From a virus, in IMG/VR virus record IMGVR_UViG_3300030616_000017, positions 32,001-96,000 of that record: DNA of 64,000 bases. One strand, given 5' to 3'. This document shows, in pieces, positions 12,223 to 31,670 of the stretch. How positions within the stretch are numbered: position 1 is the stretch's first letter; each line of letters begins with the position of its first letter. The notes beneath the pieces are model-generated. The model searched no databases and was not told the DNA's origin. It saw only the letters and a list, made by a program, of their open reading frames with translations. Made by a program: the position numbers and the translations under genes.

Positions 12223-12263
12223 GCTTTTGTTCTCCTTTTCTAAATAAAGCAATCCGTGTTAAT

Positions 12264-12275
12264 ATTATATTAGTA
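12264..12275 (-). promoter_or_regulatory. Putative late promoter TACTAATATAAT
   Basis: Exact motif. Confidence 0.7.
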
Positions 12276-12335
12276 TGCCTTTTATAAAAAAATACAAGAA
12301 TATAATAAAAAAACCCTTACTATAACAAACTTATA

Positions 12336-14264
12336 TCATTTTTTGTGACGAGACGTACCTACTACTTGATTTTTCCATTTTGCAGTTTGAGAAAAATGTT
12401 CAACCCCATACTTACTTAAATTATTCTTCTTACGTGTTTCTTTAACTTCTTTGTTTTGCATTACCCATTCTGTTCCGTATTTTTTAAGATTAGTTTGTTT
12501 TCTTTTTTCTAACACACTTCTCCACTCTTCTTTTGTATACTTAGCATGATGTTTTTTTATTTTTTCACTACTGAGTTTATTTTTACACTTTTTATCTCCG
12601 CAAGTGTCCCAATAGAACATACCTGAACCTGAAAATGCTTTTTCCTTTCCACAATAAGGGCATATAGTAGACTCATTTTGAGACTTCAAGTATTTATTGT
12701 AGTAATCTTTGCGATCAATCTCGGGGTGAGCTATTGACAAGTGTTTTTTAAGACCTTTGAGAGACTTCATATTACGTTTACAAATTTCGCAATATTCGTA
12801 CCCTTCTTTACGGGGTTCTTCATGGTGTTCTGGCTTATGAAAATAATCTATTTGCTTTTCATTATTTTTTATATTCTCTTCTACTACTCCCCATCCAAAC
12901 ACCATATTACCGCAATCCCATATACGATCAAATCCATTATTTTTCATATTTTCCCATTCAGATAATTCAGAATTAAAATCATTAATCAGTTTATGTAATT
13001 TATGTTTTTGATATTTAATTCTACTCTCTAGATTCATATAATCTTTTGTGTAAAAATAGTTTGGGGAACTGGTATTTATATATGTAAACCCATTAGTTCT
13101 ATACACTTTTCCTGTGCTGTATCTCTTATCAGCATAAGATAATATATTTTTAGGATGATAATTTTTAACAAAATGATTTAATAATTTACTAAATCCCCCC
13201 ACTATTTGTACACTATGCAAAGAAGCAAAACGATGTATCTCATATTCATAAGTATTGTACCTTGAATGACCTAGAGCAAGCACCTGAACCAATCTACTGT
13301 TTTGATCTCGCAGACCATAAAAAATAGTGCTTCCTAAATAGGATTGTTGTAAATGATTTTGTTTGAGAAAATCTTGCGCTTCCTTTTTGTTTACTTTCTC
13401 ACAAATAGTTTTACGGGCATATATTCTTTCATTAAAAATACCTAACTTGCTTAATACAAGACTTTTCACTATATCCCAATATTTTACCATCTCTACATCT
13501 AATATATGTATAACATCAATATTAAAGTAGTCCTTAAAAAAATTATTTTTTTGTATATGATAACTTCTAGGGGTATTTCCCCTTATCTCTGAGTGCCAAT
13601 ATACCCCATCTATTTCTATACCAATGTTTTTATCAGGTATGTATACATCAAGCTCTTTATTTTTACCTCCATCTATATAAAACCTCTTGTTTTTTTCATA
13701 TTTTATAGAATATTCATCAAGAAGATCGGTTATATAAAGTTCTATACCGGAAATACCTTTATACTCTTTAGGAAAACACTTAGGGCATAACGGTACCCTT
13801 CTTCCTACAGAATTACCAGTAAAAATAGTTCCGCAGTGTTTACATTTCCATTGATATTCATATCTAACTCCCTTCCACTCTGTATCTATATTAAATAGTG
13901 GTTCAGAGTGCTTATCTTGCTTCATCTCAGTTTTAATACGAGAAATACTTCTATAATAATTTTTACAAGAGGCGGAGCATAATGTAGGAAACTTTTTAGA
14001 GGTTTTATTCCATGTTACTTTTTTACCGCAATATACGCAAGTAGGATGTTTATGGAGTTCATTTTCTATGCAATATATGCGAGCATTGAAATCTATGTCT
14101 TCAGGAAGAAAATTAGTGGCTTGCTCTACTTCTCTTTTAATTTGATTAAAGAAAGGATATTTAACAGGGTCTCGATCCTCATTTAATTTATTTAAGGTTT
14201 GGGTATTTCCTTCTTTAAATAAATGTTGATACATTCTACTCTTTAAATCTTTAGTATAAACCAC
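12336..14264 (-). mobile_element. Free-standing Hef-like homing endonuclease gene (PD-(D/E)XK/Vsr-like domain plus zinc fingers)
   Basis: ELDVYIP...IGIEIDGVYWHS; RIYARK...IWDCG tail; several CxxC; KRKQTNLKKYG repeats; more AT-rich than the flanking genes. Confidence 0.8.
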
Positions 14265-14295
14265 TAATCAACCTCTTTTTATACAATCTAATTAT

Positions 14296-14324
14296 AATAT
14301 AACATTATATTAGTAATAGTTCAA
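14296..14324 (-). promoter_or_regulatory. Nested promoters: TTGAAC-17-TATATT with late TACTAATATAAT (14304-14315) inside the spacer
   Basis: Both motifs are exact. Confidence 0.75.
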
Positions 14325-14357
14325 GAGTAGAGGTTATTTTAATGTAAAATAAGCAGT

Positions 14358-14390
14358 AAAAAACCCTCCTACTAAGAGGAGGGTTGTTTT
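14358..14390 (-). terminator. Rho-independent terminator after the capsid gene
   Basis: AACCCTCCT/AGGAGGGTT stem followed by a T-tract. Confidence 0.8.
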
Positions 14391-14416
14391 TTAGTTTATC
14401 TTATAAAGTCAATCTC

Positions 14417-15826
14417 TTACAGATTGTTAAGCTTCATCCGAACAATATAATTAGAATTGAGAACCTTATTATCACCAAAGTGATAAAGTCCAGTCTCTTT
14501 GTAAGCTTCTTTATATTCCAAAGTTTGAGTTTGATACAGCGGAATCAGCGAACCGAATACAATCGCCATATCGTTGCTTTCACTTGGGTTTCTCCAAACA
14601 CCAATTGCTTCGTCAGCAGGAACAATATTAGCAGGAGCAACATACACCGGCTTGCCAAGAAGCGTACCAGCTCTGTAAATACCTACTTGGGGCTGAGCAC
14701 CGTCCATGGTGAATTTGTCGTGAAGAGTAAGATAAGAGTACACATCAGAACCAACAACGAGATTGTTAATTCCACCTCTTTGAAGAGCTTTGTAGATTAC
14801 CTGACCAGCTTCAGTAAGCTTTCTTGTAAAACTCTGAGCATGGGCAACTTCACTATCAGCACCAGCAGCAGCAAAATCAGCGTTGAACTCGGTAAGGGTG
14901 TTACCCTTTGAATAACGATAAGCCATTCTAACAGCTTGGAAATCAAGAGATTTCTTCAGCTCGTCGCCGGCTCCAGAAAGAAGAGCTTCTTCAGCGTCGA
15001 TGTCAAGAGTAGTACCAAGCAGAAGCTCAGTCATCTTACTCCAAGACACATACAGCGGCCAAGGTTTGGCTCTCAGCTGGTAGTCACGAAGTTGTAACTC
15101 AACAGCTTCAATTTCATCAGTGGTTTCTTCAGAGTCGAAGAAGTACTGAACAACAACAGCAGTAGGAGTAAGTGAATCAAAATTCACAGTTACGCCACCA
15201 CTTGCAGTGTATTCAACGGTATTAGTCCCGCTTGAAAGAGCATCACCAACAAGATTACCACTACCGTCATCAACAGCAACGGGGGTATTGTCAGCAAGAA
15301 TCTTGACTGAGAAGGGGCGAAGAGGCCCATTAGCTACAGTAAGGGTCCAAGGACCGGTACCAGAACCAGAAGCTGATTCTTCTTCCATTTCAGAAGCATA
15401 ACGATAAGCTGAACTTTCGTGAGTTACATTACCATCGGTAGCTCCTCTATTGGTGGCAGCATAAACAGGGCTGAGGTAGTAAATACTATCTCTTGCAGTT
15501 ACCATCGGATAGTCGTGGAAGATTTCTCCTCTTACACTATTCGGATAACCAAGTCTGACAACGCGAAGAACGTTTTCAGGGGTTGTTGAGAACGCACTAG
15601 AGATCTGAGTCTCAGTGAGTCTTGATAGGTGGCGTTCTTGGTTTTCTAACATAATAGCAAGGCCACGAGCCTTTTGCTCATCTTTTTCCATGAGCTTATC
15701 CATGTTAGTTCCTACGCCGGGATCTTTCGACCATTTTTCAAAAAGCTGATTACCAATCTGCTTGTATTCAGAGAGGTTCTGCTTTTCTTGTTCTTTAAGA
15801 ACTTTTTCTTGCATAGCTTTACGCAT
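14417..15826 (-). CDS. Major capsid protein (T4 gp23-like, HK97 fold) with a beta-rich insertion
   Basis: KWS...A.MLENQ.R.L...E N-terminus; G.L.G..VY; E-rich propeptide; position next to protease and portal. Confidence 0.9.
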   Translation of the reverse strand: MRKAMQEKVLKEQEKQNLSEYKQIGNQLFEKWSKDPGVGTNMDKLMEKDEQKARGLAIMLENQERHLSRLTETQISSAFSTTPENVLRVVRLGYPNSVRGEIFHDYPMVTARDSIYYLSPVYAATNRGATDGNVTHESSAYRYASEMEEESASGSGTGPWTLTVANGPLRPFSVKILADNTPVAVDDGSGNLVGDALSSGTNTVEYTASGGVTVNFDSLTPTAVVVQYFFDSEETTDEIEAVELQLRDYQLRAKPWPLYVSWSKMTELLLGTTLDIDAEEALLSGAGDELKKSLDFQAVRMAYRYSKGNTLTEFNADFAAAGADSEVAHAQSFTRKLTEAGQVIYKALQRGGINNLVVGSDVYSYLTLHDKFTMDGAQPQVGIYRAGTLLGKPVYVAPANIVPADEAIGVWRNPSESNDMAIVFGSLIPLYQTQTLEYKEAYKETGLYHFGDNKVLNSNYIVRMKLNNL

Positions 15827-15971
15827 GACTGTTTTTTTCTCCTATAAGGTTTTTAAAAGTTATACTTTCGAAGGCAGGACCTCTTATATTAAAAGAAGGC
15901 ACTCAACTTCACTTTTTTTCGGCTCTTATTTGAAAGAAACCTCTAATACTTTTATACTATCATTTCTTTAT

Positions 15972-15983
15972 ATTATGTTAGTA
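15972..15983 (-). promoter_or_regulatory. Putative late promoter TACTAACATAAT (capsid gene)
   Basis: One mismatch; lies just downstream of the Hsp20 terminator. Confidence 0.65.
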
Positions 15984-16006
15984 GTATTTTTTCAGAAAAG
16001 TTACAT

Positions 16007-16033
16007 AAAAAAAGGAGGCTTAGTAGCCTCCTT
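16007..16033 (-). terminator. Rho-independent terminator after hsp20
   Basis: AAGGAGGCT/AGCCTCCTT stem plus T run. Confidence 0.8.
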
Positions 16034-16036
16034 AAT

Positions 16037-16447
16037 TTAAGTTAGTTTCAATCGTTTTGGTTTTAGGTCTTCTTTAGCTGGAATAAAAATAGTTAGAATT
16101 CCATTGCTTAGTGAAGCACTTGCTTTATCCACATTGTACTTGGACTGTGGAATAGCATACTTAGTTACAGAAGAAGAAGTTTTAATCCCTTTGTGTAGTA
16201 CTTTCAACTTCCCTTCCATTTCCGTTTTTACAGAAGGTAGAGTTAGTTTTAGAGCATCATTCTCAAACTCAATCTCCACTTCTTCTTTGTCATACCCCGC
16301 TACAGCAAAACGAAAAGTAATATCTTTCGTTTCTTCATCAATAATGACATCGTAAGGGGGAAATGTTGGGTAAGGAAAATCCTCTACCTCAAAACCTTTG
16401 AACACTTGATCAAATAGATCAAACACGTTGTAAATAGAACGATTCAT
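16037..16447 (-). CDS. Small heat-shock protein (Hsp20/alpha-crystallin)
   Basis: FPPYDV, AVAGY.KEE, A.L.NGILTI.IP. Confidence 0.9.
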   Translation of the reverse strand: MNRSIYNVFDLFDQVFKGFEVEDFPYPTFPPYDVIIDEETKDITFRFAVAGYDKEEVEIEFENDALKLTLPSVKTEMEGKLKVLHKGIKTSSSVTKYAIPQSKYNVDKASASLSNGILTIFIPAKEDLKPKRLKLT

Positions 16448-16542
16448 AGTATAAACCTCCTTGAAGCGTTTATATAAATATATTTAAGACCTTCATACGA
16501 AGCGTCTCTTTGTTCTATATTTGTATATGTAATAATATCAAA

Positions 16543-16564
16543 CCTCTCTCTAAAAAGAGAGAGG
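16543..16564 (-). terminator. Stem-loop CCTCTCTC/GAGAGAGG, probable terminator
   Basis: Perfect 8-bp inverted repeat downstream of 16599. Confidence 0.55.
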
Positions 16565-16598
16565 AAAAATATTACAACATTTTTTATGATGTTAAATC

Positions 16599-16907
16599 TT
16601 AGGTGTCTGCTTCGCTGTCTGAATTACCATCTCTCTGAGCAATCACAACAATTTGCTGATCTTCAGTGAGAGAGTATGACCCGCCGTTTTCAATCTTAAC
16701 TTGACCTTCATCAGGGTAAGTAATCACTGCGCCCGTCATAGCTACGACAGCGCCTGATGAACTAAGGGTCATCACAGTAGAAGCTAAAAGATAATCGTCT
16801 ACTTGAAAGTCAATTAGAAGTTCTCCATCGCTGGCATCTCCCGCTGTAACTGTATGTCGATATCCAAAGCTAACACCGTTGGTTGGTCTGGCTAGTACTG
16901 TACTCAT
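16599..16907 (-). CDS. Probable head decoration/structural protein
   Basis: Beta-rich 102-aa protein in the head module. Confidence 0.5.
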   Translation of the reverse strand: MSTVLARPTNGVSFGYRHTVTAGDASDGELLIDFQVDDYLLASTVMTLSSSGAVVAMTGAVITYPDEGQVKIENGGSYSLTEDQQIVVIAQRDGNSDSEADT

Positions 16908-16939
16908 TCTTTTTCTCCTTTATAATTGTCTTTAATATT

Positions 16940-17242
16940 TTAGTGGTTAATTTCTTCTTGTATAGAAACTGACCCAACCCAGTTAACACTTCTCAAAGCC
17001 TGTAGTTCTGAATTATCTACTTCAACCCAGAATACCATATTCTTAGGATCCATTACAGGCTCTTCGAAAGCAATACCGAGATTATCTAACACTTTCTTCA
17101 CCTGACTCTGAGCTCTCTTGTCTCTAGGGTCAGTCATAATCATGATATCATTTGAAGCTCGTTCTCTCAATTCGAGATCTTTTTGAAACTTTTCAAAAGC
17201 AAGACCTTCTTCTATAGATGAAAAATCTCGGATTTTCCTCAT
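16940..17242 (-). CDS. Hypothetical head-module protein
   Basis: Directly downstream of the protease/scaffold gene. Confidence 0.6.
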   Translation of the reverse strand: MRKIRDFSSIEEGLAFEKFQKDLELRERASNDIMIMTDPRDKRAQSQVKKVLDNLGIAFEEPVMDPKNMVFWVEVDNSELQALRSVNWVGSVSIQEEINH

Positions 17243-17246
17243 GATC

Positions 17247-18788
17247 TTACAGCCATCCTTCTCTGATTTTCATACCTGAACTAAGATAAGCTTTTTCTCT
17301 TTCTGTTCCTTTGTCATCTTCCTTGATAAGAGGAATTTTATGATAAGGAGAAGGAGAATCTTCAATTAAGTCTTTCAGAGAAAGGTACGTTCTTTGAGCT
17401 TCCATAAGAGTTCTGCACTTGAGAATTTGCTCTTTGATCTTTTTCATATTAGGATAGCGATCAACCATTCTTTCATAGTAATCTCTTACGGATGCAGTTG
17501 CGCTTTCTAAAAGATCATCGTTCTGTTCTTCCTCTTCTTCAACCTGCTCTTCAACTACCTCATCCTCTACCTTTTCTTCTACCTCTTCTTCTTTTTTCTT
17601 CTTTATTTTCTTTGTAGGTTTGTCTACCTTTTGAGATTCTTCAACTTGCTTTTTAAGCTCTCTGATTTTTTCTTTGAGCTCTTCAATCTCTTCCTCTTTT
17701 TCTTCTGTATAATGATACAGCTCATTGTACTCGGAGGCTTTTACCATACCGTTTTTCTCTGCAAGAGCGGTATCATACATTTCCTTAAACTTTTCTTCTC
17801 TAAGTTTAAGATCATCCAGCATCTGCGCGGCCTTCTCGTACTTGACTTTAACCGCTTCATATTTTTGAGTTACTTCTTCAATTTGTTCAGTAAGAGTTGT
17901 TTTCTCTTTTTCCACAGACTCTACAGATTCTTTTAACTTATCTGTCTCTTTACCTTTTATAGCTAACTCGTAAAGGGTATCATTAATTTCTTTGATTTTA
18001 GCGTTTGCTTCTTCAAGATACTCTTGTACAAAAGAACTTTCAGCGTCTTCGCAATACTCTACGATTTCTTGGTAAACAGAAAGCTTGTCTTTTAGATCTT
18101 CTGTAGCATCTGCACTTTCGAAAAGATGCTTTAGCCCAAGCTTTAAATTCTTCTCTGCAAGAGTAAGCTTCTTCTCTTTTGTGGGATTCTCAGCCATTGC
18201 TTTCTCCTTTTTTTCTTCGACTTTTTCTTCTACTTTTTTCTCAGCAGACTCTTTATCCTCTTCTTTCTCTTCTTTTTTTGATTCTTTAGATGCAAACACT
18301 TGGTAAGACGGTTGGTCTACCCAATCTGCATATCTCTCAATTTCAAATCCTTCTTCTAAAACGGTGCCATTATCATCAACATCACCATAAGCTGAACTTG
18401 ATAATCCTATTTGGCCGCCCGCTTCTAAAATCTCATTAGCAAGTTCGCCATTCTTCCCTACTAGATAAGCATCTACATACATAATCCCCTCTCGCACATG
18501 AGGATTTTTCTCCACTGCGAAAGTGTTAAGTACGTCTGCTTCGTCTTTAGGATGATTGGCTAGCCCTAATGTTACCGCACTTTCCTTCATCAGTTTTTCA
18601 GCTAATTTAGATGAATAAATTCTTTCATTCAGGTTTTTCTGATCTAGTCTCCAAACCGGAATTTCATACGCCCCTCTACACTTGTAAGTGGTGCCATCTT
18701 GTTCAAGTAAAGCCTCACTTTCTGTTAGAGGAAGTTTCTTTATATCATCTTTTTTGACTGTAAATCTTTCTTGAAGTTTTTGTCTCAT
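17247..18788 (-). CDS. Prohead protease (gp21-like) fused to a coiled-coil scaffold
   Basis: NLNERIY, GLANHP, IGLSSSAYG, DWVDQPS catalytic motifs, then a long E/K coiled coil; start moved to MRQKL. Confidence 0.85.
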   Translation of the reverse strand: MRQKLQERFTVKKDDIKKLPLTESEALLEQDGTTYKCRGAYEIPVWRLDQKNLNERIYSSKLAEKLMKESAVTLGLANHPKDEADVLNTFAVEKNPHVREGIMYVDAYLVGKNGELANEILEAGGQIGLSSSAYGDVDDNGTVLEEGFEIERYADWVDQPSYQVFASKESKKEEKEEDKESAEKKVEEKVEEKKEKAMAENPTKEKKLTLAEKNLKLGLKHLFESADATEDLKDKLSVYQEIVEYCEDAESSFVQEYLEEANAKIKEINDTLYELAIKGKETDKLKESVESVEKEKTTLTEQIEEVTQKYEAVKVKYEKAAQMLDDLKLREEKFKEMYDTALAEKNGMVKASEYNELYHYTEEKEEEIEELKEKIRELKKQVEESQKVDKPTKKIKKKKEEEVEEKVEDEVVEEQVEEEEEQNDDLLESATASVRDYYERMVDRYPNMKKIKEQILKCRTLMEAQRTYLSLKDLIEDSPSPYHKIPLIKEDDKGTEREKAYLSSGMKIREGWL

Positions 18789-22221: not shown

Positions 22222-22635
22222 TTATAATAGTTTTAAATTACCAGTAATTTTATTAATTTCTTCAGACTTTGCAGGGCCTATAGCAATACAAGTAGGTGTT
22301 TTTACACCATGAAATTCAGTTAAGCCGCTATCTACAATATAAGAACAAGGTAAATTTCTTTTTTCAGCTTCCCTGTATAATTCATTTAACTCTTCCTCTG
22401 AATTACAGCTTACTACTACTTTAGTAAAAAGACCCTCCATCCAATCTCTCATATCTTCTGTTATATTCTGAATAACGCAATAATACTGATTCTCAACCCC
22501 AGCATCGATATCCATTACAGTAATATTGTCAAAAAATACTTTCATAGAAGCATGTGCTGATTGAGCTGCAATTTTTCCTTTACGCATTTTAAGGTCTTTT
22601 CTTACTACTATAACTTGTTTAATTTCTTCACTCAT
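22222..22635 (-). CDS. pth2: Peptidyl-tRNA hydrolase, Pth2 type
   Basis: KQVIVVRKDLKM.KGK.AAQ.AHA, TKVVV, D.G.TE, T..AIGP, ITG.LKL. Confidence 0.95.
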   Translation of the reverse strand: MSEEIKQVIVVRKDLKMRKGKIAAQSAHASMKVFFDNITVMDIDAGVENQYYCVIQNITEDMRDWMEGLFTKVVVSCNSEEELNELYREAEKRNLPCSYIVDSGLTEFHGVKTPTCIAIGPAKSEEINKITGNLKLL

Positions 22636-22644
22636 ATTTTTTCC

Positions 22645-23070
22645 TTATATATAACATACTCGAATTTCTATGTTTGTATTTCTAAAAACTTCCTTTATGT
22701 CTTCCTCTGTAATCTCCCAGGGAAGCTGATCTAAACCTGAACCAATTTTAGGCATTACAATATGTTTAATTCCAGTATTCATTGCTATATATTTCATATC
22801 ATGTAAAGCATAAAAAAGATCCTGTTGTTTAGGCTTCCCAGATGATCTGGCCTTTGTAATAAGATTAAAAACTCCATGATGAAGAATACACGTAGGGTAT
22901 TTCCTTTCCTGTTCAGAGTATATGTCTTTCATCTCATAAAGATTAAACTTTTTTTTAATTGGTACAGCAATACCAGCCCCCATTCTACAATCAGATGCAA
23001 TACAATGAGCAACATGGTACTTATTAAAATCAACTGTAAAAATATCTCGCTTTTCTATGCTGTATATCAT
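22645..23070 (-). CDS. Macrodomain (Poa1/TARG1/DarG-like) ADP-ribose hydrolase
   Basis: HCIASDCRMGAGIA, NLITK, MPKIGSGLD.L.W. Confidence 0.9.
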   Translation of the reverse strand: MIYSIEKRDIFTVDFNKYHVAHCIASDCRMGAGIAVPIKKKFNLYEMKDIYSEQERKYPTCILHHGVFNLITKARSSGKPKQQDLFYALHDMKYIAMNTGIKHIVMPKIGSGLDQLPWEITEEDIKEVFRNTNIEIRVCYI

Positions 23071-23091: not shown

Positions 23092-23120
23092 AATATAACC
23101 AAAAAATCATATATTTTCAA
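23092..23120 (-). promoter_or_regulatory. Early/middle promoter TTGAAA-17-TATATT
   Basis: Exact spacing; upstream of the macrodomain gene. Confidence 0.75.
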
Positions 23121-23700
23121 GTGATATATCTAAATGGTTTTTGCCTTCTAAGTAGTGTTTAGCATATAAATCTTCCGGTAAATTACTAAGGATGTAGGGT
23201 TTATGATCTTTTCCAATAAATTCTACTCGATCTAAGCCAAAGTGATTAGCAATTTTTCTCCAATTTTTTATCCATTTGGATTTATCCTTTCTTTCATGAT
23301 GCTGCACATATAAATCCATTCCTCCCAAATCAAACCCTAACACTTTAACTTCCTTATATCCCTCATACAGAGCTGCTGCTACCAATGTAGATCCAGATTC
23401 TGCATAAAAATGTTTCGGTAAAGTTAATTGTTGAACACCAGGTAATTCCCAAGATCTTTTATTCTTTCCATATATTGCCATTTTTAATCGGTATTTTCTT
23501 TTGTATTTTACTGCGATTTTTAACGCTACATAATCTCCTATCAATCTATCCAAGCGGGGTAATGAGCCATTTGCAAGCTCTAAAAAAGCAGAATTACAAG
23601 CCCATATTTCACCTTCCCATTCTTGAATAAACTTAACATAATTTTTTCGGGATACGCCGTTTCCTAAAATAAGTACTTTTTCATGATTGATTTGTTGCAT
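23107..23700 (-). CDS. Putative sialyltransferase-fold protein (CstII/Maf-like), paralog of 25118-25738
   Basis: LILGNGVSR, W.CN, SGSTL, LGFD motifs. Confidence 0.55.
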   Translation of the reverse strand: MQQINHEKVLILGNGVSRKNYVKFIQEWEGEIWACNSAFLELANGSLPRLDRLIGDYVALKIAVKYKRKYRLKMAIYGKNKRSWELPGVQQLTLPKHFYAESGSTLVAAALYEGYKEVKVLGFDLGGMDLYVQHHERKDKSKWIKNWRKIANHFGLDRVEFIGKDHKPYILSNLPEDLYAKHYLEGKNHLDISLENI

Positions 23701-24400
23701 AACCTTTTTCCTGTAATAATGTTTCTAGTATGTTCCAATCCTCTTTTTCATCTATTTCATAAGAAGTATACGGTGGTGTAATATATAAAGAAACAGGGGG
23801 AGTTAAGCGACATTTATTGTCTATATAATTTTGAATAGAGTTTATGTATATACCTCCATTTTCTACAAATAAGCCATTATGAAAGTTCTGTCTTCTTTCT
23901 CTTTTTATAGGATCATAATTAACTGGAACTCCAACTTGTTCTATTCTAGATTTATATGTCCAGAAAAACCTTTCACTTTGACTTACACTTAACAAGGATT
24001 TACAATCAGTTTCTTCTACATATTGTGAAATAGCTCCATCAACAAAAAAAGAATTTACCCACGGAGAAGTGGCCTGAACAAGAACTATGTGATCTTCTGG
24101 CTCTCTTTTAAACACACCTTTATGTATCCAGTCCATTACCGCCGATTCAGTAGTAGCTTCGTCTGTAGCTGTCTCAATAGAACGCCAATGTATTCTACCT
24201 TTTGAAAAATAAAAAGAAACAAAAGCATCTGCATAGTTCATACTATCTAAAAGTACGTGAAACTCTTCTATATAATGTGATTTTTGAAGAGCATTACATA
24301 CCCACCAAAATAAAGGCTTTCCAAGAAAATCTTTAATGTTTTTATTCGGTATTCCCTTGGATCCGCTTCTTAGAGGAACAATCCCTATATATCTACTCAT
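23681..24400 (-). CDS. neuA: Acylneuraminate cytidylyltransferase (CMP-nonulosonate synthetase)
   Basis: PLRSGSKGIPNKNIK, QATSP, RRQ, ENG.IY, EIDE..D; start moved to MSRYIG. Confidence 0.9.
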   Translation of the reverse strand: MSRYIGIVPLRSGSKGIPNKNIKDFLGKPLFWWVCNALQKSHYIEEFHVLLDSMNYADAFVSFYFSKGRIHWRSIETATDEATTESAVMDWIHKGVFKREPEDHIVLVQATSPWVNSFFVDGAISQYVEETDCKSLLSVSQSERFFWTYKSRIEQVGVPVNYDPIKRERRQNFHNGLFVENGGIYINSIQNYIDNKCRLTPPVSLYITPPYTSYEIDEKEDWNILETLLQEKGYATNQS

Positions 24401-25118
24401 AGCTTTTTTCTCCATTTTTCGTAAATACAAAAGTTGCGTAATGAATTTTTTCTCTAATGTTAGAAATATATAAAGGTTGTAAAGAAACAGAAAGTAGGGC
24501 TTTCCAAAATTCATCTAGCATAAACGAAGTAGCACGCATATGCTTAACTTTATATTCATCTATATTCTCAATAGGCTTATAAGCTTCTTCCCCATTATCG
24601 TAGCGTATTTGAATCACTCCTACTCCGTTTACTTTCAAAGCTTGAGCTATTATTTGTAACACTTCCATAGCGTATTCTTTCGAGGGAAAATGCTGAAAAA
24701 CAGCAGTAGAAAGAAAAAGGTCAACAGGATCGTGAATCGATTCTAGAACAAATTGCGGGTTCTCTTCTATTAAAATAGGAGTAAATGTAATGTTGTTTTC
24801 TTCCGCAACCGCTTGTGACGCTTCTAAACTACGGAGAGAAATATCAATACCGATATATTTTTTTATGTAAGGAATTAAAGCATTGATATTAGAACCGCCA
24901 CCAACTCCCCACTCAGCAATTATCATTGGCCCCATTTTTCGATCTAAAAATGAGAAACCCTGTTTTATTTGCGGTAAATTCCTTTTTCCTAGACTTTCCC
25001 ACTTAGCAAGGTCTTTATAAATTCCTTTTCCTCGAATATGAGAAATGGCGTCTTGATGATCTAAATCAGAACTGTTTACCCACACATCTTTTACTTTATT
25101 AAAATCTTTTTGGTCCAT
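24393..25118 (-). CDS. Class I SAM-dependent methyltransferase
   Basis: EWGVGGGSN, GIDIS, DLFLS.AVFQH; start moved to MDQKD. Confidence 0.85.
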   Translation of the reverse strand: MDQKDFNKVKDVWVNSSDLDHQDAISHIRGKGIYKDLAKWESLGKRNLPQIKQGFSFLDRKMGPMIIAEWGVGGGSNINALIPYIKKYIGIDISLRSLEASQAVAEENNITFTPILIEENPQFVLESIHDPVDLFLSTAVFQHFPSKEYAMEVLQIIAQALKVNGVGVIQIRYDNGEEAYKPIENIDEYKVKHMRATSFMLDEFWKALLSVSLQPLYISNIREKIHYATFVFTKNGEKSYE

Positions 25119-25738
25119 TATACAACCTCCAAGTGATTTATACCCTGCGAATACAATTGCCAATATTTATTATCTGGCTCATCACTCAATAAATATTTTT
25201 TATGATCTTTTCCTATGAATTCAATCCTATCAAGCCCATAACTTTTGGCTATCTTGCGCCAATGCTGAATCCAATTAGTTTTATTCTGAGTATGAAGATC
25301 ATCCACGTAAATATCATAACCCCCCAAATCAAACCCAGCTAAATAAATCTTTTCATACCCCTCTACTAATGCTTTAACGGTAAGCGTGCTTCCTGAATCT
25401 CTAACATACATTGCAGGAATATTATCTAATTTTTCAACATGAGGTAAAGCTATATTTTGAGGTCGTTTAGAAAAAATTCTATAGGCAAACTTGTATTTAT
25501 CAATAGCAGCAGAAGCTTCTTTTAATGCATCGTGATCACCTGTTAGTACATTAAGCCTTGGAATGTCCTTAGTAATAAGTTCTTTGAACACGTTATTGCA
25601 GCCCCATATCTCTCCCGGCCAATGCTGTACAAATGGTTTATGCCGCAGTCTTGATACCCCGTTTCCAAGAATCAATACAGATTTTATATTTGGATTTTTC
25701 CTATAGGTGTCTAGGATTCGTTTACATTGTTCTGTCAT
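25118..25738 (-). CDS. Putative sialyltransferase-fold protein, paralog of 23107-23700
   Basis: LILGNGVSR, W.GEIWGCN, DSGSTL, AGFDLGG, GLDRIEFIGKDHK near-identical to paralog. Confidence 0.55.
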   Translation of the reverse strand: MTEQCKRILDTYRKNPNIKSVLILGNGVSRLRHKPFVQHWPGEIWGCNNVFKELITKDIPRLNVLTGDHDALKEASAAIDKYKFAYRIFSKRPQNIALPHVEKLDNIPAMYVRDSGSTLTVKALVEGYEKIYLAGFDLGGYDIYVDDLHTQNKTNWIQHWRKIAKSYGLDRIEFIGKDHKKYLLSDEPDNKYWQLYSQGINHLEVV

Positions 25739-25740
25739 AA

Positions 25741-26331
25741 CTAGTTGTACCCTTTCTTTTTAAATACTAGCATTTTTAAAAAACTACTTTCTATAAACCC
25801 CCACTGATCATCCTCAATTCTACTAAACCACCAATCTCTATTTCGAATAGTTTGATGTAAGTTTCCTATATCCTTAAACTCAGATTCTTTTTTTAGAAGA
25901 TTCGTCCAAGTCATGTTTATTTCTTTTCCATATGCAATTTTAAGAAATAAATATTTTTTACTAACCCTTTTGATTTCTTTGATAGCTTGTTCCGCGTCTT
26001 CAGGAATTAGATGTTCTAATACATCACACGAAAAGACAGCGTCGAATTTATTATCCTCAAAAGGTAATTCTACAGCAGTTGCAACTTGACAAGTTGAAAG
26101 CCCTATGGTTTTAGATTCCTGAATAGCCGTAGTAGAAACATCAACACCATATCCCTCTATTCCTTTTTCAATGAATTTTTTAACCGCCATGCCTTGTGAA
26201 CAGCCAATTTCTAATAGAGAAGAAAACTTATAGTTATCGGTTATATAGTCCACATATTTTATACCGTGATTTTTTAAATCTTTATGATAGCCTTTCCTGT
26301 ATAAAAAATCATACACTTTATAATAATCCAT
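25741..26331 (-). CDS. Class I SAM-dependent methyltransferase
   Basis: LEIGCSQG, GVDVS, LPFEDNKFD, DVLEHL. Confidence 0.9.
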   Translation of the reverse strand: MDYYKVYDFLYRKGYHKDLKNHGIKYVDYITDNYKFSSLLEIGCSQGMAVKKFIEKGIEGYGVDVSTTAIQESKTIGLSTCQVATAVELPFEDNKFDAVFSCDVLEHLIPEDAEQAIKEIKRVSKKYLFLKIAYGKEINMTWTNLLKKESEFKDIGNLHQTIRNRDWWFSRIEDDQWGFIESSFLKMLVFKKKGYN

Positions 26332-26994
26332 TCAATTCTCCTTTAAATGCCCAAGTCTTTGTTCTAAACTATTGATTGTTTCAGAAGATGCTTTCACTTT
26401 TCCTGAAGATATTAACTCATAAATATACCGATGATTATTATCAGAATCATGAACTGTCTGAGGTGTTTTTCTGTTTCTTTGCATTTCCGCAGCTTCCTCA
26501 ATTATAGATTCTGGCAAATACCCCGGATAATATTTTTGTTTATTATTAGAATAAAAATCCACGCCTGTAATGTGAAACTCTTTTGGCGAAGCAGAAACAA
26601 TCATATCTAAAATAATAGCACCCATTAAAGCCCCTCTAATTTCCAATACTCGGGGACTTTGAACTATTACTTCAACAGGAACACCATTATCTATAATTGA
26701 ATCATATAAAGGAGAGTTAAAACTTTTACAATATATATGCTTTAACCCCCGGGCTTTAAGTTTGTCCATATCTATTTCTTGAATATGCCTTTGAAATTGA
26801 GAATTAAAAAATAGAACTGAGTACTTACTTCCATAATCTCTATTAAAATCGGGATCATCTAAGAAAAAAACTGAACCGTTAGTTCTTACAACTATGTCAA
26901 AAGAATCAATCCATTCCCCTAACCCCTTATTTCTAATGCAAGGAGAGGGACCTACAAATATAACTTTTTTATTGGTCATATATTCTATATTCAC
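26332..26994 (-). CDS. GT29-like sialyltransferase
   Basis: Sialylmotif-L-like VGPSP...GLGEWIDSFDIVVRTN; ITGVDFY; C-terminal His. Confidence 0.75.
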   Translation of the reverse strand: MNIEYMTNKKVIFVGPSPCIRNKGLGEWIDSFDIVVRTNGSVFFLDDPDFNRDYGSKYSVLFFNSQFQRHIQEIDMDKLKARGLKHIYCKSFNSPLYDSIIDNGVPVEVIVQSPRVLEIRGALMGAIILDMIVSASPKEFHITGVDFYSNNKQKYYPGYLPESIIEEAAEMQRNRKTPQTVHDSDNNHRYIYELISSGKVKASSETINSLEQRLGHLKEN

Positions 26995-27012
26995 TTAAAC
27001 CTCTTTTTTAGT

Positions 27013-28110
27013 TTAATTGCTTTCACAATATCTATTAAACTCATCAAAATTATTTTTGATAATATGAAATAAGTTTTCTTTAGCTTCTTCAATTTCCTTT
27101 TGAATTTTTCTCTTGTGCTGTAACATATATAAAGCTTTTTCTACTAGAGTTTCTTGTATTTTATCTTCATCATCCAGATCAATCATCCAGTCAAGTTTAT
27201 TTATATCTTCCAGAAAAAACTTAATTTTATTATGCACATGCAAAGACAGAACAGGAATTCCTAATCCAAAAGGAATCATCTGAGAGTGACCTCTACCTGC
27301 AATTACTAAATCGAAAGATTTATAGAAGTTAAAAGAATCTTCTACTGAGTAACGTCTTATATCAATAATAGTATGTGGAATATTTAATTCAACTAAATAA
27401 TCTAGAATTTCAACATCAAAATTGGGAGCATGAAGAACAACAGTAATTGAATACCCTTTATCTACTAATTCCTCAATCCCTTTAGCAATAGGTAAAACTT
27501 TTTGGCGAGGTGTTTCTCCGTATCTCAAAACTTTTCGATCAAAAGGAATATTTATTGCAATCTTTTTTGTTTTTCCGGGGTTTGTAGGAACATTCCACAG
27601 ATGATTAATAATTGTGGTAGTACAAGGTACAAAAGAAATATCAGTGTCTAAATCTGAAGGAAAATGAGGTAATAGTTTCTCAATATCCCCTTTATGTCTA
27701 AGACTGAAGTGAATAGTTTTTTGAGATAATAATTCTACAGAAGATAGAAATAGTTCACTTGGTTCTTGCCCCCAAAAATAATTAAACCCTACAGTAAAAA
27801 CAATAATAGGAATTTGAATACTTTCTAAGACCTCATTGCTTACTTTCCAATGCCAACCAGAAACTTCATTAGAGGATAATCCATGCGCCATAAACAGACC
27901 TCCTCCCCCCACCAGAATTACATCAACATCTTCTAAAATAGTTTTAGCATTTTCATCTGCCCATTCTCTTATATTCATAGGTTTCCATGAAATAGAGTGC
28001 TTACAAAACTTTTCAAACGTTTTTCTAACAGCATGTGTTAAGACATAGTCTCCGTAATTGCCTCTTTTTTCTGAGTAACTTAGATGTAGAATTCTTACAG
28101 GCTCACTCAT
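27013..28110 (-). CDS. Polysaccharide pyruvyl transferase family protein
   Basis: GNYGD, VGGGGLF, FSLR, R.H..., GIP. Confidence 0.85.
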   Translation of the reverse strand: MSEPVRILHLSYSEKRGNYGDYVLTHAVRKTFEKFCKHSISWKPMNIREWADENAKTILEDVDVILVGGGGLFMAHGLSSNEVSGWHWKVSNEVLESIQIPIIVFTVGFNYFWGQEPSELFLSSVELLSQKTIHFSLRHKGDIEKLLPHFPSDLDTDISFVPCTTTIINHLWNVPTNPGKTKKIAINIPFDRKVLRYGETPRQKVLPIAKGIEELVDKGYSITVVLHAPNFDVEILDYLVELNIPHTIIDIRRYSVEDSFNFYKSFDLVIAGRGHSQMIPFGLGIPVLSLHVHNKIKFFLEDINKLDWMIDLDDEDKIQETLVEKALYMLQHKRKIQKEIEEAKENLFHIIKNNFDEFNRYCESN

Positions 28111-28768
28111 ACGCTTCCTTATGTGATATTATCATATCTAGTTTTTCTAAAAAACGAGCATCACAACTTATATAATGTGTTTCAATTATTTCTTTTAAGA
28201 CTACAGCATTCCAATACCTCGAATGGGCTAAGTGGCCGTCTTTATGTGATTCATCTTCAAACGCTTTCATAGTTGGATGAATATACCCTTCCACATATCC
28301 ACTCCAATCTTTATTGTACACATTAGCCCGATTTATGTACATATCCATTCCAGTAAGAAAGAGGTGCTTAGGCTTTAATTTTGTTAAATAGTGGACAACA
28401 GCAACTCCTGAATACGTAAACCCTCTTTTCATTTTACTTTCCACTTCTTTGAAAGCTCGAGGAATAGCTGTATGAGGAATATCTGTATATTGCGGGTAAT
28501 TTCTTTTGAAAAGAAAATGTTTTACAAAAGGGTATTTTTTAAGGTCTGGTTTTAATTCTCTTACAAATGGATTAGTTAAAAAATGAAGTGTGTCTTTTTT
28601 TCCGTAATCTTTTTGATATTCTTTATCTTTTTGTATAAAGAGAGAGCCATTAAACTTCACCACAACATCATGTGAATCAATAAACTCTCCGAGGCGTTTC
28701 CCTTTAATAATATCACTGCTGCCAACAACAATAATTGATTTTCCTTCTACAATTTCCTTGCAATCCAT
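28103..28768 (-). CDS. GT29-like sialyltransferase
   Basis: IVVGSS...LGEFIDSHDVVVKFN...DYG.K; YSG; LTGMD; HS. Confidence 0.75.
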   Translation of the reverse strand: MDCKEIVEGKSIIVVGSSDIIKGKRLGEFIDSHDVVVKFNGSLFIQKDKEYQKDYGKKDTLHFLTNPFVRELKPDLKKYPFVKHFLFKRNYPQYTDIPHTAIPRAFKEVESKMKRGFTYSGVAVVHYLTKLKPKHLFLTGMDMYINRANVYNKDWSGYVEGYIHPTMKAFEDESHKDGHLAHSRYWNAVVLKEIIETHYISCDARFLEKLDMIISHKEAYE

Positions 28769-30039
28769 GATGTATCCTTAAAGGTTGCTTCAACCTTAAT
28801 GTTTCTATCTACAGCTTTTCGAACTCCGGGATGATGTTTACTTAAATAATCATGACCCCCTATAAAGCCGCCTCTCTTGACTTTCGGTAGCCACATTTTA
28901 ATATCCTGCTCTACGAATTCTTCTGCGTGATTACCATCAATATATACAAAGTCTAAACTCCCCTCTTTGAAATCTTTTACAGCTTCTTGAGATTTTGTTT
29001 TTATTTTAGTCACGTTAGGATATTGTGAAAGTACAAAGATATCAAATTGTTTTTCCACCTCAACCATATTATATTTAGACGGATCGGAGGCCCCGTCGTA
29101 ATTACTATAATTAGATTGCCAAGGGTCAACACAAGTTAAATGTTTAACTCTTTTAGCAAAAACTTCGGATGAATTTCCGGCAAAAGAACCAATTTCCACC
29201 ATAGTTACTTTTTCGATAGGTTTTACTCGGCTGATGTAATCACATAAATCTTCTAACCCCGAAATAGCATTTTTTGCTTTTCTTATACTAATTCTGTTCA
29301 TAATGTTCCACCATTTTTCTTCTAACTTAGCAAAATCTACCTTATCGCGGTAGTCTCTTCTTGTAATAGGATCTTGCCAAGGTTTAATAGCTACGTAATG
29401 TAGAATCTTAGCTTTATCAACTGTTTTCTTAAACTTATCACTTTTATACATTCTTTTTTCTACATTATACTCTTTAGGTAGAATTTGTGTTTTTTCTCTG
29501 AAATACTTATTTAAGCATTCTTGATCAGGCAACTTATATCCCTGTTTAATATCTTCGACTAATGCGTGATACGTTTTCTCATTTAACCATTGTTTGCCTA
29601 TAACAAATACTCCGCTATTGAAAGTACTAACAAGTCTATCACAAGCCTCTCTGTAGCTTCTCACAGCTAAAAACTCAGTATGATCTCTAAACAATAAACT
29701 TATTCTATCAAGCACTATCACATCTAAATCAATAAAAATAGCTTGTTGATACCCAAGCTTATACAAAGAAAAAATATCTAGCTTGTAATACGTATTGCGA
29801 AGATGAGGTACGGTTATTTCAAAATTAGTACCTTCATACATCTTATAATTCGGTTGAATAAATGTAAGCTTTGGATAGTATTGACGACAAAACTCTCTAT
29901 CTTTCTCTGTCATTCCTATTTCAAGAAGAACAAAATCAAGAGAAAAATCGGGATGCACTTGAAGCAGAGATTTAACAAATCCTACATAACCAGGAATAAA
30001 ATTCGGCGTAATTAGGGAGCATAAACACTTTTTTAACAT
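28747..30039 (-). CDS. GT8 glycosyltransferase fused to a Methyltransf_24-type methyltransferase
   Basis: FIDLD, FNSGVF, DQ..LN, HY...KPW; then EIGSFAGNS, DFVYIDGNH, GGHDY. Confidence 0.9.
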   Translation of the reverse strand: MLKKCLCSLITPNFIPGYVGFVKSLLQVHPDFSLDFVLLEIGMTEKDREFCRQYYPKLTFIQPNYKMYEGTNFEITVPHLRNTYYKLDIFSLYKLGYQQAIFIDLDVIVLDRISLLFRDHTEFLAVRSYREACDRLVSTFNSGVFVIGKQWLNEKTYHALVEDIKQGYKLPDQECLNKYFREKTQILPKEYNVEKRMYKSDKFKKTVDKAKILHYVAIKPWQDPITRRDYRDKVDFAKLEEKWWNIMNRISIRKAKNAISGLEDLCDYISRVKPIEKVTMVEIGSFAGNSSEVFAKRVKHLTCVDPWQSNYSNYDGASDPSKYNMVEVEKQFDIFVLSQYPNVTKIKTKSQEAVKDFKEGSLDFVYIDGNHAEEFVEQDIKMWLPKVKRGGFIGGHDYLSKHHPGVRKAVDRNIKVEATFKDTSWIARKL

Positions 30040-30875
30040 CCACGTAAATCCTCTCTCTTTTTAAGTTCGCTGGGAAACACTTCTCTGGGCTCATACCCTG
30101 TATATGCGGTACTTAAATCTCTGATGCCTTTGACTAACTTAAAAAATCCCGAAGGCTCTATTGAGGATTTTTGATCACTCCCCCACATAGCGTGGTCCAT
30201 TGTAATGTGTGCTTCTACCCATTTAGCTCCTAGGTAAATAGAAGCAATGGTTGGTATAATTCCATAATAGTGATTGCTGTAGCCTGCACAAATATGAGGC
30301 CACTTATCCTTTATCCACTCAATATAGCGCAAGTTTAATTCTTCTACGGGAGTAGGATAGGCAGAGTTGGTGTGCATAAGCACGTGAGGTTGTAGCAAAC
30401 TGACTGCTTCTGCAACTTCTTGTTCATTACTCATACCAGAGGACATAATCCTAAATCTGAAATTCTCTTTACAAAACTGTAAAAGTTCTTTGTTGGTAAT
30501 ATGAGCGGAAGGAATTTTGACAATTTGTGTCAGTTCGGTCATAAATTGAGCGCTCTCTATGTCCCAAACAGAAGCAAAAAAGCCAATGTTGTTCTCTTTT
30601 GCTTTTTTACTGAGATACAAGTACTCATCTCTATCAAACTCAATGTCTTTTTTGTATTGAAGGTATGTGGTGGGATCTTTTCGCCAAGGAACAATTTTCT
30701 CTTGGTTTTTCTTCTCAGGAGGAACTGCTTTATCTGGGTCTCTTTTTTGGAACTTTACATAGTCCGCGCCAGATAAAGCAGCTACTTGAATTAACTTTAC
30801 AGCTGTATCGACATCTTTTCCTTTTTCCTCTGTTACCGCATTGATACCTATTTCTGCAATAATATTTACTTTCAT
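30033..30875 (-). CDS. neuB: N-acetylneuraminate/nonulosonate synthase (no C-terminal SAF domain)
   Basis: IIAEIGIN, GAD.VKFQKR, KIPS, SAYP, GYS.H, E.H.T.D, GSDQ.SS.EP. Confidence 0.92.
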   Translation of the reverse strand: MKVNIIAEIGINAVTEEKGKDVDTAVKLIQVAALSGADYVKFQKRDPDKAVPPEKKNQEKIVPWRKDPTTYLQYKKDIEFDRDEYLYLSKKAKENNIGFFASVWDIESAQFMTELTQIVKIPSAHITNKELLQFCKENFRFRIMSSGMSNEQEVAEAVSLLQPHVLMHTNSAYPTPVEELNLRYIEWIKDKWPHICAGYSNHYYGIIPTIASIYLGAKWVEAHITMDHAMWGSDQKSSIEPSGFFKLVKGIRDLSTAYTGYEPREVFPSELKKREDLRGC

Positions 30876-30919
30876 CTTTGCTATATCCTTTTCTATATAG
30901 TTTTTACTTGGAACGTTAC

Positions 30920-30931
30920 ATTATATTAGTA
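30920..30931 (-). promoter_or_regulatory. Putative late promoter TACTAATATAAT heading the glycan operon
   Basis: Exact motif 45 bp upstream of neuB. Confidence 0.7.
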
Positions 30932-30959: not shown

Positions 30960-31607
30960 TCAAGGAGATAAATATCGCCTGAGATCCTGCTGAATATCTT
31001 TAAGACGAATTTGTATCCATTGAGTAGTATATCCCATTTTTTTCCCAATAGCGTTATAAGTATAACCGCCCAGCCTCATCTCTAGCATAGAGCTATCTTC
31101 TACAGAAAGACTCTTCTTGAAAGAATCAATAGTAATCTTTAAATCTATATCACCCCCGAAACTTTCGTAGTTCTTAGAAGCGCAAATAGAATTATCTATT
31201 CTTTGATCTATTCCTGCTAAAGAGTCGTTAAAGGAATGAGTTACAAGAGCTGCTTCAGGGAGAGGGGTATGTCGGGGTCTTTTTTTTCTTCCGTCCACTT
31301 CAAAAACGGAAAATCTTTCTTTCGTGGCATATCTTTTTATTTGATTGCGAAGAATGTAGTTAAAAATTGCCCAAATCTTCCAAGTAGAAGAATTAGTGAT
31401 TTTATTAAGTTGCACGTTATTTACTGCTTTTTGCATAGAAAAATAGGCATCTGATACAAAATCCTGTTTATCTTCCCTGGTAAACCCATATATTTTGCCT
31501 ATTTTAAAGGCAGTATGGGTTATAAAAGGTTTGTATTTTTCATACAAAGCATATAACATGTCATTATTTCCATTTTTTGCAGCTACTACCATTTGGTAAT
31601 CGTTCAT
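30960..31607 (-). CDS. Sigma70-family sigma factor (regions 2 and 4)
   Basis: AKNG....LYEKYKP.I, D.QD..S.AY; HTH GYTYNAIGKKMGYTTQWI; late-like CACTAATATATG upstream. Confidence 0.8.
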   Translation of the reverse strand: MNDYQMVVAAKNGNNDMLYALYEKYKPFITHTAFKIGKIYGFTREDKQDFVSDAYFSMQKAVNNVQLNKITNSSTWKIWAIFNYILRNQIKRYATKERFSVFEVDGRKKRPRHTPLPEAALVTHSFNDSLAGIDQRIDNSICASKNYESFGGDIDLKITIDSFKKSLSVEDSSMLEMRLGGYTYNAIGKKMGYTTQWIQIRLKDIQQDLRRYLSP

Positions 31608-31642: not shown

Positions 31643-31670
31643 TAGCAGGACCCGTTACGGATCCTGCTTT
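31643..31670 (-). terminator. Rho-independent terminator
   Basis: AGCAGGATCC-GTAAC-GGGTCCTGCT stem followed by ATTTT. Confidence 0.8.

Follow-up and report, generated by a model that had tools for sequence, protein, structure and literature searches.

Glycosylation of flagellin with nonulosonic acids by Maf-type transferases takes place in the cytoplasm. In Campylobacter, Helicobacter, Aeromonas and Magnetospirillum (Magnetospirillum Maf, PDB 5MU5), pseudaminic or legionaminic acid is O-linked to this structural protein prior to its assembly. Here, a cassette of ten genes with related constituents is described from a 64,000-nucleotide stretch of phage DNA (the window), corresponding to bases 32001-96000 of IMG/VR record IMGVR_UViG_3300030616_000017. 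Based on gene content and genomic context, it is somewhat more probable than its alternatives combined (roughly 55%) that this cassette specifies a late, cytoplasmic pathway which glycosylates the virion proteins of the phage with an acidic, methylated and pyruvylated nonulosonate glycan.

The Maf system and the phage cassette have in common a NeuB-type synthase, a cytidine monophosphate (CMP)-sugar synthetase and soluble transferases of the same fold, as well as multiple transferase paralogues and methylated sugar variants, the latter being predicted for the phage. They differ in that the two Maf-fold proteins of the phage, p7 and p10 (206 and 197 residues, respectively, as compared to 632 residues for 5MU5), are devoid of the N- and C-terminal Maf domains, which have a role in substrate/flagellin binding, and return no hit to PF01973, and in that the phage possesses no flagellin, its presumed acceptor being a virion protein. 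Furthermore, the cassette adds GT29-like enzymes, a fusion of a GT8 glycosyltransferase and a methyltransferase, and a pyruvyl transferase, while precursor-forming enzymes are missing.

Among phages, mycobacteriophage Che8 and its relatives employ phage-encoded glycosyltransferases to decorate capsid and tail-tube subunits (Freeman et al. 2023, cited in PMC12619734). The present cassette likewise encodes its own glycosyltransferases, for which the virion is the proposed target. As represented in PMC12619734, the mycobacteriophage system uses ordinary glycosyltransferase families and host nucleotide sugars and no nonulosonate, whereas the present cassette is predicted to make and modify its own activated acidic sugar. 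A third system for comparison is the Kdn-galactose teichulosonic acid of the Streptomyces wall, which is often methylated and whose gene cluster is SCO4873-SCO4882 (PMC11481543, PMC13011467); this is a wall polymer, the synthesis of which includes membrane steps. A full-text literature search, with most subscription journals outside its coverage, found no paper on phage-encoded nonulosonate glycosylation of virions.

Gene content and organization of the cassette

The record from which the window was taken is 147,158 bp long and 100% complete according to CheckV. It represents an uncultured myovirus-type phage with a recognisable portal, major head protein, tail sheath, two tail tube proteins and a tape-measure-like protein, the capsid protein being only ~25% identical to that of any isolate in the phage collection. 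When the cassette was compared by megablast with 50,697 phage records, zero nucleotide matches were obtained. Ten co-directional open reading frames (ORFs) fill positions 23107-30875 and are numbered p1 to p10 in the order of the coding strand:

p1, 30033..30875, minus strand: NeuB-type nonulosonate synthase, 280 residues, TIM-barrel domain alone
p2, 28747..30039, minus strand: 430-residue fusion of a GT8 retaining glycosyltransferase (residues 6-223) and a Methyltransf_24 S-adenosylmethionine (SAM) methyltransferase (residues 281-398)
p3, 28103..28768, minus strand: GT29-like, sialyltransferase-fold transferase, 221 residues, predicted to be soluble
p4, 27013..28110, minus strand: polysaccharide pyruvyl (ketal) transferase, 365 residues
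p5, 26332..26994, minus strand: second GT29-like transferase, 220 residues, a paralogue of p3
p6, 25741..26331, minus strand: class I SAM methyltransferase, 196 residues
p7, 25118..25738, minus strand: CstII/Maf-fold protein ('mini-Maf'), putative nonulosonate transferase, 206 residues
p8, 24393..25163, minus strand: second SAM methyltransferase
p9 (neuA), 23681..24514, minus strand: CMP-nonulosonate (NeuA/PseF-type) cytidylyltransferase
p10, 23107..23700, minus strand: second mini-Maf/CstII-fold putative transferase, 197 residues

Gaps between these genes do not exceed 18 nt, and the remaining junctions abut or overlap by 1-26 nt. A scan of the coding strand within the cassette for terminator-like hairpins detected no strong example (none with more than six stem pairs), and the best explanation for this arrangement is that all ten are transcribed as a single unit. 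Transmembrane-like segments are absent from each of the encoded proteins. A preliminary description of this DNA had proposed a cassette of precisely this composition; all ten overlapping or abutting ORFs were located on the minus strand as described, and each of the enzyme assignments passed hidden Markov model (HMM) and structure tests, the 'GT29-like' and 'CstII/Maf-like' designations holding at the level of fold. The enzyme identities can be stated with considerable confidence. Two of the start codons probably require revision: p8 would start at ATG 25118, overlapping the p7 stop codon by 1 nt, rather than at TTG 25163, while p9 would start at 24400 or 24415 rather than at 24514, as suggested by the translations of both genes and by a Pfam match that begins only at residue 43.

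A promoter-like motif shared with virion genes

The cassette is preceded by the following elements:

promoter-like motif TACTAATATAAT, 30920..30931, minus strand: exact 12-mer, 44 nt before the neuB ATG
sigma-factor-like gene, 30960..31607, minus strand: directly upstream of the cassette, matching phrog_351 (E 1.4e-11) with a weak Sigma70_r2 hit
terminator-like hairpin, 31644..31668, minus strand: strong, 11 pairs, seven of them G-C, at the end of the DNA polymerase unit that precedes the sigma gene

If up to one mismatch is allowed, TACTAATATAAT occurs 14 times in the window as compared to an expected 1.37 (an approximately tenfold excess), and none of 100 shuffles contained as many copies. 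The aligned sites extend to the consensus tACTAATATAATAT and lack a conserved -35 region. Minus-strand copies are, genome-wide, nearly all intergenic and positioned 0-57 nt ahead of start codons; the motif precedes the genes for the portal (by 28 nt), the tail sheath, both tail tube proteins and the tape-measure-like protein, as well as several small genes of the structural block, while ahead of the major capsid gene there is only a copy with one mismatch, at a distance of 145 nt. Late promoters of phage T4 are single-element promoters, and the present motif, being without a conserved -35 region, resembles promoters of this kind. The two related phages described below likewise have a homologue of the sigma-like gene immediately ahead of the cassette, and the product of this gene probably reads the tACTAATATAATAT promoter. 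The exact motif that had been reported ahead of neuB, and as common to the portal and other head genes, is thus real and is retained in two relatives. Co-regulation of the cassette with the virion genes is well supported by comparison among these phages, and expression of the cassette would be late, as judged from the motif that it shares with those genes.

An exact copy of the virion motif is also located 39 nt upstream of an ORF of 642 residues (12336-14264, minus strand) that follows closely after the capsid gene within the structural block and that strongly matches HNH/homing-endonuclease PHROGs (E 5e-97).

Related phages and placement in head modules

Scanning of viral contigs with a single NeuB protein gave no match, and loci were retrieved only with family profiles, that of the p7 family yielding 39 viral loci. 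Two phages are related to the present one. G001 is a complete genome of 139.9 kb with terminal repeats, 92 of 174 genes being common to both phages at ~35-60% identity, while G002 is a contig of 90.6 kb. Their cassettes are syntenic, encoding NeuB (~52% identical to p1 in both cases), GT8, a methyltransferase, a GT29-like protein, variable genes, NeuA and then several mini-Maf domains. Both relatives retain the exact 12-mer ahead of neuB, at a distance of ~40 nt (G001) or 32 nt (G002), within intergenic sequence that is otherwise unalignable. The structural genes of G001 occupy the plus strand at 15-79 kb and its cassette the minus strand at 90-102 kb, more than 10 kb away, and 14 of the 16 motif-bearing genes in this genome are structural, the other two being neuB and the sigma-like gene. 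This distribution constitutes the strongest evidence here that the cassette would belong to the virion regulon. In the variable part of the G001 cassette, the pyruvyl transferase and methyltransferases are replaced by a sulfotransferase, a GT2 glycosyltransferase, a UDP-glucose/GDP-mannose dehydrogenase and a further MptE-like protein, and the cassette therefore has the appearance of a diversifying acidic-glycan module.

A number of additional features of G001 were observed. A one-mismatch copy of the motif, GACTAATATAAT, is located 15 nt upstream of its sigma-like gene (L047:3710-4486, i.e., G001 103710-104486), which would permit autoregulation of the virion regulon. The UDP-glucose/GDP-mannose dehydrogenase (L046:15726-17459, i.e., 95726-97459) is divided over two ORFs, the first encompassing the N-terminal and central domains and the second the C-terminal UDP-binding domain; a weak match to intein splicing (E 2.7e-4) at the junction is compatible with an intein remnant or a split gene. 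The structural module contains approximately 13 paralogous genes, encoding proteins of 265-596 residues (L043-L044, 26961-50425), which share a region of ~90 residues with a 140-residue protein encoded at positions 3708-4130 of the window, the family being much expanded relative to the present phage.

The other mini-Maf loci are mostly found on unrelated phage contigs whose length does not exceed ~40 kb. Among 34 unrelated loci, there are 18 in which the start of the p7-like gene falls between -10 and +200 nt from the point where the gene annotated by PHROGs as major head protein ends, the gene order being portal, protease, virion structural protein, head protein, mini-Maf, neck and tail. In a second lineage, the mini-Maf gene is located between the head protease/head region and the neck and sheath genes. 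No neuA or neuB was found within 10 kb of the head-module loci, which would therefore need a host CMP-sugar. In the relative L050 (capsid protein 53% identical), a cassette with mini-Maf, GT8, GT29-like, methyltransferase and NeuA genes ends ~2 kb upstream of the capsid gene. This association of the mini-Maf family with head modules points to head proteins as acceptors. The virion had previously been favoured as the target, and this choice is supported by the occurrence of the family in the head modules of unrelated phages and by the lack of transmembrane segments in all ten proteins.

GT29-like transferases p3 and p5

Families GT29 (animal ST3Gal, ST6Gal and ST8Sia) and GT42 (CstII and Cst-I) are linked to each other by structure, and both p3 (Z scores of 12-13) and p7 (8.5-10.3) appear to share their GT-A variant-2 fold. 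Pfam GT29 (PF00777, cut-off 23) was matched by p3 with 36.2 bits and by p5 with 26.3 bits; the two proteins are 27% identical (E 4e-22). The match of p3 contains a sequence of the sialyl-motif-L type and spans model positions 58-116 of 272, i.e., the motif L part only, and p3 and p5 are members of GT29 in the strict sense for that part only. Alignment of p3 to ST6Gal1 from the PDB gave an E value of 6e-5 using the single sequence and 7e-10 using the family profile, and the latter also aligned to CstII over positions 13-205, nearly the full length (E 3e-6).

A structural model of p3, predicted with 71 homologues, has a predicted local distance difference test score (pLDDT) of 97.1. The best 20 Foldseek hits of this model in the PDB are sialyltransferases throughout, with animal GT29 enzymes leading. 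VIA-align returned Z scores of 12.9 for ST3Gal-I (root-mean-square deviation (rmsd) 2.9, 166 residues), 12.3 for ST6Gal1, 12.3 for Cst-I and 12.0 for CstII; fold alignments at Z 12.3-12.9 cover 166-173 residues, and the next scores outside the fold family drop to Z 4.2. His182 is the single invariant residue among the 71 homologues, and this C-terminal histidine is a candidate equivalent of the catalytic base of the sialyltransferases. Unlike the GT29 and GT42 enzymes, the phage proteins are ~220 residues long, without a stem or transmembrane region: in p3, no hydrophobic segment, type II membrane topology or stem was detected, the catalytic domain beginning with the first residues. They belong to a very large, unnamed environmental family. 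A profile of this ~220-residue GT29/GT42-like family finds 3403 representative metagenome clusters (903 at E <= 1e-10), and the family is common in phage contigs; the earlier statement that GT29 is mainly eukaryotic is therefore in need of correction.

CstII/Maf-fold proteins p7 and p10

The p7 and p10 proteins are 48% identical (E 1e-63), and p10 retains every family-invariant residue. No Pfam hit, including to CST-I and PF01973, was obtained for either protein at E 0.01, nor was PF01973 matched anywhere in the genome at E 1, although among the Atlas clusters nearest to p7 and p10 it is present in 34-63% of members. The AlphaFold model of p7, based on 18 homologues, has a pLDDT of 93.8. Its top Foldseek hit is CstII (E 1.6e-4), and the top 11 hits are all CstII or Cst-I. 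VIA-align superposed the model on the central domain of Maf 5mu5 (residues 271-500) with a Z score of 10.6 (rmsd 3.3, 160 residues) and on Cst-I with a Z score of 10.3, the range being 9.9-10.3 for Cst-I and CstII and 8.5-10.3 across the GT42 and GT29 sialyltransferases. Searching with a p7 family profile gave an alignment to Cst-I that takes in the GNGxS and SG..G(F/I)D motifs, with an E value of just 0.011. HHalign detected no link between the p7 family and the GT29-like family (probability 6%), and these are therefore treated as two families with one fold.

The same fold is found in pyrophosphokinases, and the p7 model superposes on MptE HPPK with a Z score of 10.1 and on thiamin pyrophosphokinases (TPK) with Z scores of 8.1-8.6. 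This similarity, together with the low HHalign probability, would be consistent with p7 and p10 being MptE/TPK-like pyrophosphokinases or other nucleotide-binding enzymes, in which case the cassette has just two nonulosonate transferases. We regard this as improbable: the leading Foldseek hits are CstII and Cst-I without exception, the family profile meets Cst-I at both nucleotide-sugar motifs, p7-type genes always accompany neuA and neuB or adjoin capsid genes, and G001 possesses at least six p7-type domains beside neuA.

Tandem fusions of two mini-Maf domains, of 340-385 residues, occur in many relatives of p7 and p10 (proteins P0008-P0013). Three such fusions follow neuA in a row in G001 (90318-93501), accounting for the at least six domains of that genome.

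Predicted nonulosonate synthesis and candidate sugars

Pfam NeuB (PF03102) matches p1 with 197.9 bits over model positions 1-236 of 241. The protein scores below the NCBIfam equivalog cut-offs of both NeuB_NnaB (TIGR03569; 176.3 vs 399.65) and PseI (TIGR03586; 119.4 vs 340.25). Its best solved relative is 6ncs (290 residues), and it also aligns to PseI 8h2c and to NmNeuB. The metal-binding residues H202, E221 and H223 are invariant in eight phage homologues. The C-terminal SAF/antifreeze-like domain that characterised NeuB, PseI and LegI proteins possess is absent from p1, which ends at residue 280, its match to the 349-residue NmNeuB stopping at chain residue 274.

The best 80 bacterial homologues of p1 (40-45% identity) are likewise SAF-less, each ending fewer than 40 residues past the domain. 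They derive from many actinomycetes as well as from Chlorobi, Ignavibacteria, Bacteroidota, Chloroflexi and Planctomycetes; a NeuA-like gene is present nearby in 37 of the 80 and a p4-like pyruvyl transferase in nine. One actinomycete locus was inspected, the neighbours being NeuA, a GT2 and a polysialyltransferase-like gene. SAF-less actinomycete proteins from loci of this type are numerous among the nearest cellular relatives of p1, and these loci would be candidate counterparts of the Streptomyces Kdn cluster, which includes SCO4881.

The cytidylyltransferase p9 matches CTP_transf_3 (PF02348) with 65.9 bits over model positions 1-205 of 217; its closest NCBIfam model is PseF, at 76.4 bits and thus below the equivalog cut-off of 205.7. 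Across the whole 147-kb genome, no NeuC-type epimerase (Epimerase_2), DegT aminotransferase, Polysacc_synt_2 or SDR Epimerase was found, nor any PseB/LegB-type dehydratase or other Pse/Leg precursor enzyme, nor a KdsC-type HAD phosphatase. The absence of NeuC and Pse/Leg precursor enzymes, which had been noted for the window, therefore extends to the entire genome.

For the synthesis of Kdn, mannose or mannose-6-phosphate together with phosphoenolpyruvate (PEP) suffices, and Kdn would therefore suit a phage without precursor genes. Equating the SAF-less NeuB clade with Kdn synthesis was considered, with support from the actinomycete loci and from the absence of precursor enzymes, but was weakened by the contexts of two homologues. 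A phage homologue 49% identical to p1 has a second NeuB and a strongly matching NeuC-type 2-epimerase as neighbours, and the clade is thus not Kdn-specific, while a Bacteroidota homologue lies beside an aminotransferase, an SDR and a HAD phosphatase. In view of these contexts, and in line with the preliminary description, more than one sugar is considered: an N-acylated nonulosonate derived from a host precursor has a little under even odds, a Kdn-type sugar is a serious but slightly lesser contender, and the remaining, small share falls to something else.

A phage nonulosonate pathway that is fuller than the present one was observed on a 58-kb phage contig (L077:30-12050). Its run of 16 co-directional genes includes those for an SDR epimerase/dehydratase, a methyltransferase, a GDSL acylhydrolase, the NeuC-type 2-epimerase, NeuA, an SDR, a PhyH dioxygenase and a GT29-like protein, in addition to the SAF-less NeuB that is 49% identical to p1 and the second NeuB-like gene.

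Modifying enzymes

The p2 fusion protein matches GT8 (PF01501) with 73.8 bits over model positions 2-251 of 253 and Methyltransf_24 with 69.4 bits. A DxD motif is present as DLD within FIDLDVIV, and the two halves are encoded by separate genes in G001 and L050. The p4 protein matches PS_pyruv_trans (PF04230) with 58.3 bits over model positions 1-276 of 280, and a homologue in Blastopirellula (30% identity) adjoins a SAF-less NeuB and NeuA. For p6, Methyltransf_11 scores 64.8 bits, and the best NCBIfam model is a pseudaminic-acid-associated methylase (47 bits, below cut-off). For p8, Methyltransf_12 scores 31.3 bits, which is weak but above cut-off, and Methyltransf_11 scores 29.1 bits.

The methyltransferase half of p2 carries the PHROGs label 'DNA methyltransferase', which would be in keeping with attachment of the glycan to the DNA of the phage, the bases of which would thus be hypermodified and protected from restriction. 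This target, previously listed as an alternative to the virion, has lost ground and is now judged very improbable. ThyA-family enzymes and ThyX represent the usual route to hydroxymethyl bases, and neither a ThyA-family (hydroxymethylase-type) nor a ThyX gene was found in the whole genome. The promoter of the cassette is, moreover, common to virion genes and not to replication genes, and we know of no transfer of a CMP-nonulosonate to DNA. Hypermodification of DNA by virus-encoded glycosyltransferases has nevertheless been described (Pyle et al. 2024, cited in PMC12619734).

Proposed pathway and target

In the pathway that we infer, including its timing, acceptor, sugar and order of steps, the cassette would be activated at the same time as the genes for head and tail through the phage-specific single-element promoter tACTAATATAATAT. 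The NeuB-type synthase would condense PEP with a host-supplied hexose or hexosamine to yield a nine-carbon 2-keto-3-deoxy acid, which p9 would convert to the CMP-sugar. Four soluble sialyltransferase-fold enzymes (two GT29-like and two mini-Maf/CstII-like) and the GT8 hexosyltransferase may then transfer sugars in the cytoplasm, the product being decorated by three SAM methyltransferases and a PEP-dependent pyruvyl transferase. The most likely acceptors would be Ser/Thr residues of assembling virion proteins, above all those of the head, and the released particle would bear an acidic, methylated and pyruvylated coat.

Several observations weigh against this proposal. The shared motif is the sole ground for calling the cassette late. 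The chemistry of p1 may differ, since it is missing the SAF domain, which contributes an essential arginine in the NeuB of Neisseria, and p9, if it truly starts at 24514, would carry a hydrophobic N-terminus. The p7 and p10 proteins match no Pfam glycosyltransferase model, and their fold is common to pyrophosphokinases. Finally, the cassette of this phage sits outside the head module, being flanked on one side by the sigma and DNA polymerase genes and on the other by Macro, PTH2 and SbcD-like genes. This location would also be compatible with glycosylation of phage or host proteins other than those of the particle, or with the product being a soluble or secreted metabolite; such a role is nonetheless considered improbable given the motif shared with virion genes and the head-module placement in relatives.

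A further consideration is that soluble transferases could also operate at the inner side of the membrane, with lipid-linked intermediates of the host as their substrates. Since this remains compatible with the data, remodelling of a host surface glycan (lipopolysaccharide, capsule, S-layer or flagellin) late in infection is retained as an alternative, unlikely as it is at perhaps less than half the weight given to virion glycosylation. Phage-encoded modification of surface glycans is well known, for example in the case of the prophage genes epaA and epaB, which change the pseudaminic acid of the Acinetobacter capsule (PMC12053666). In addition, bacterial pyruvyl transferases, GT8 enzymes and sialyltransferase-fold enzymes act mostly on surface polysaccharides, and the closest cellular NeuB homologues are located in cell-wall/capsule-type loci, beside a GT2 and the polysialyltransferase-like gene. 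Were this the true role, masking of the receptor could spare progeny from loss on cell debris or already infected cells. Neither the cassette nor the genome was found to encode a flippase, a polymerase or an initiating (phosphoglycosyl) transferase, however, and the absence of membrane segments from the cassette proteins, the co-regulation of the cassette with virion genes in three phages, and the adjacency of the mini-Maf family to capsid genes in many lytic-type head modules all favour glycosylation of the virion.

Neighbouring genes

Directly downstream of the cassette and in the same orientation (22222-23070, minus strand) are genes for a Macro-domain protein of 141 residues and a PTH2-type peptidyl-tRNA hydrolase, a type that is usual in archaea and eukaryotes. 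Neither gene accompanies the cassette in G001, and a role for the Macro-domain protein as the sugar-phosphate phosphatase of the pathway was rejected for that reason. Elsewhere, one ORF of 3513 residues is located within the tail/baseplate region (G000 7455-17996, outside the window).

Significance

Taken more broadly, the data offer a tentative case, at a little below even odds, for a widespread and undescribed modification, by which many environmental tailed phages would synthesize a sialic-acid-like sugar of their own and cover their heads, and perhaps tails, with it. This would be achieved by minimal soluble mini-Maf and GT29-like enzymes, the genes for which are either located among the virion genes or co-regulated with them, the sugar being methylated and pyruvylated in the present phage. 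If true, this would represent a new class of phage post-translational modification. A negatively charged coat of this kind could influence how particles adsorb, aggregate and adhere to mucus or mineral surfaces, and also how they are recognised by the defences of the host and the immune systems of animals, as mycobacteriophage glycans do.

The 'eukaryotic' GT29-type motifs prove to be common in phages, and the phage and bacterial pool of ~220-residue GT29-like proteins would, if this broader reading is correct, bear on the origin of eukaryotic sialyltransferases. The cassette furthermore provides compact soluble enzymes for glyco-engineering, i.e., a SAF-less synthase, putative nonulosonate transferases of ~200 residues and a pyruvyl transferase, while the promoter motif and the sigma-like gene, as a pair, identify the virion regulon in a phage lineage that is uncultured.

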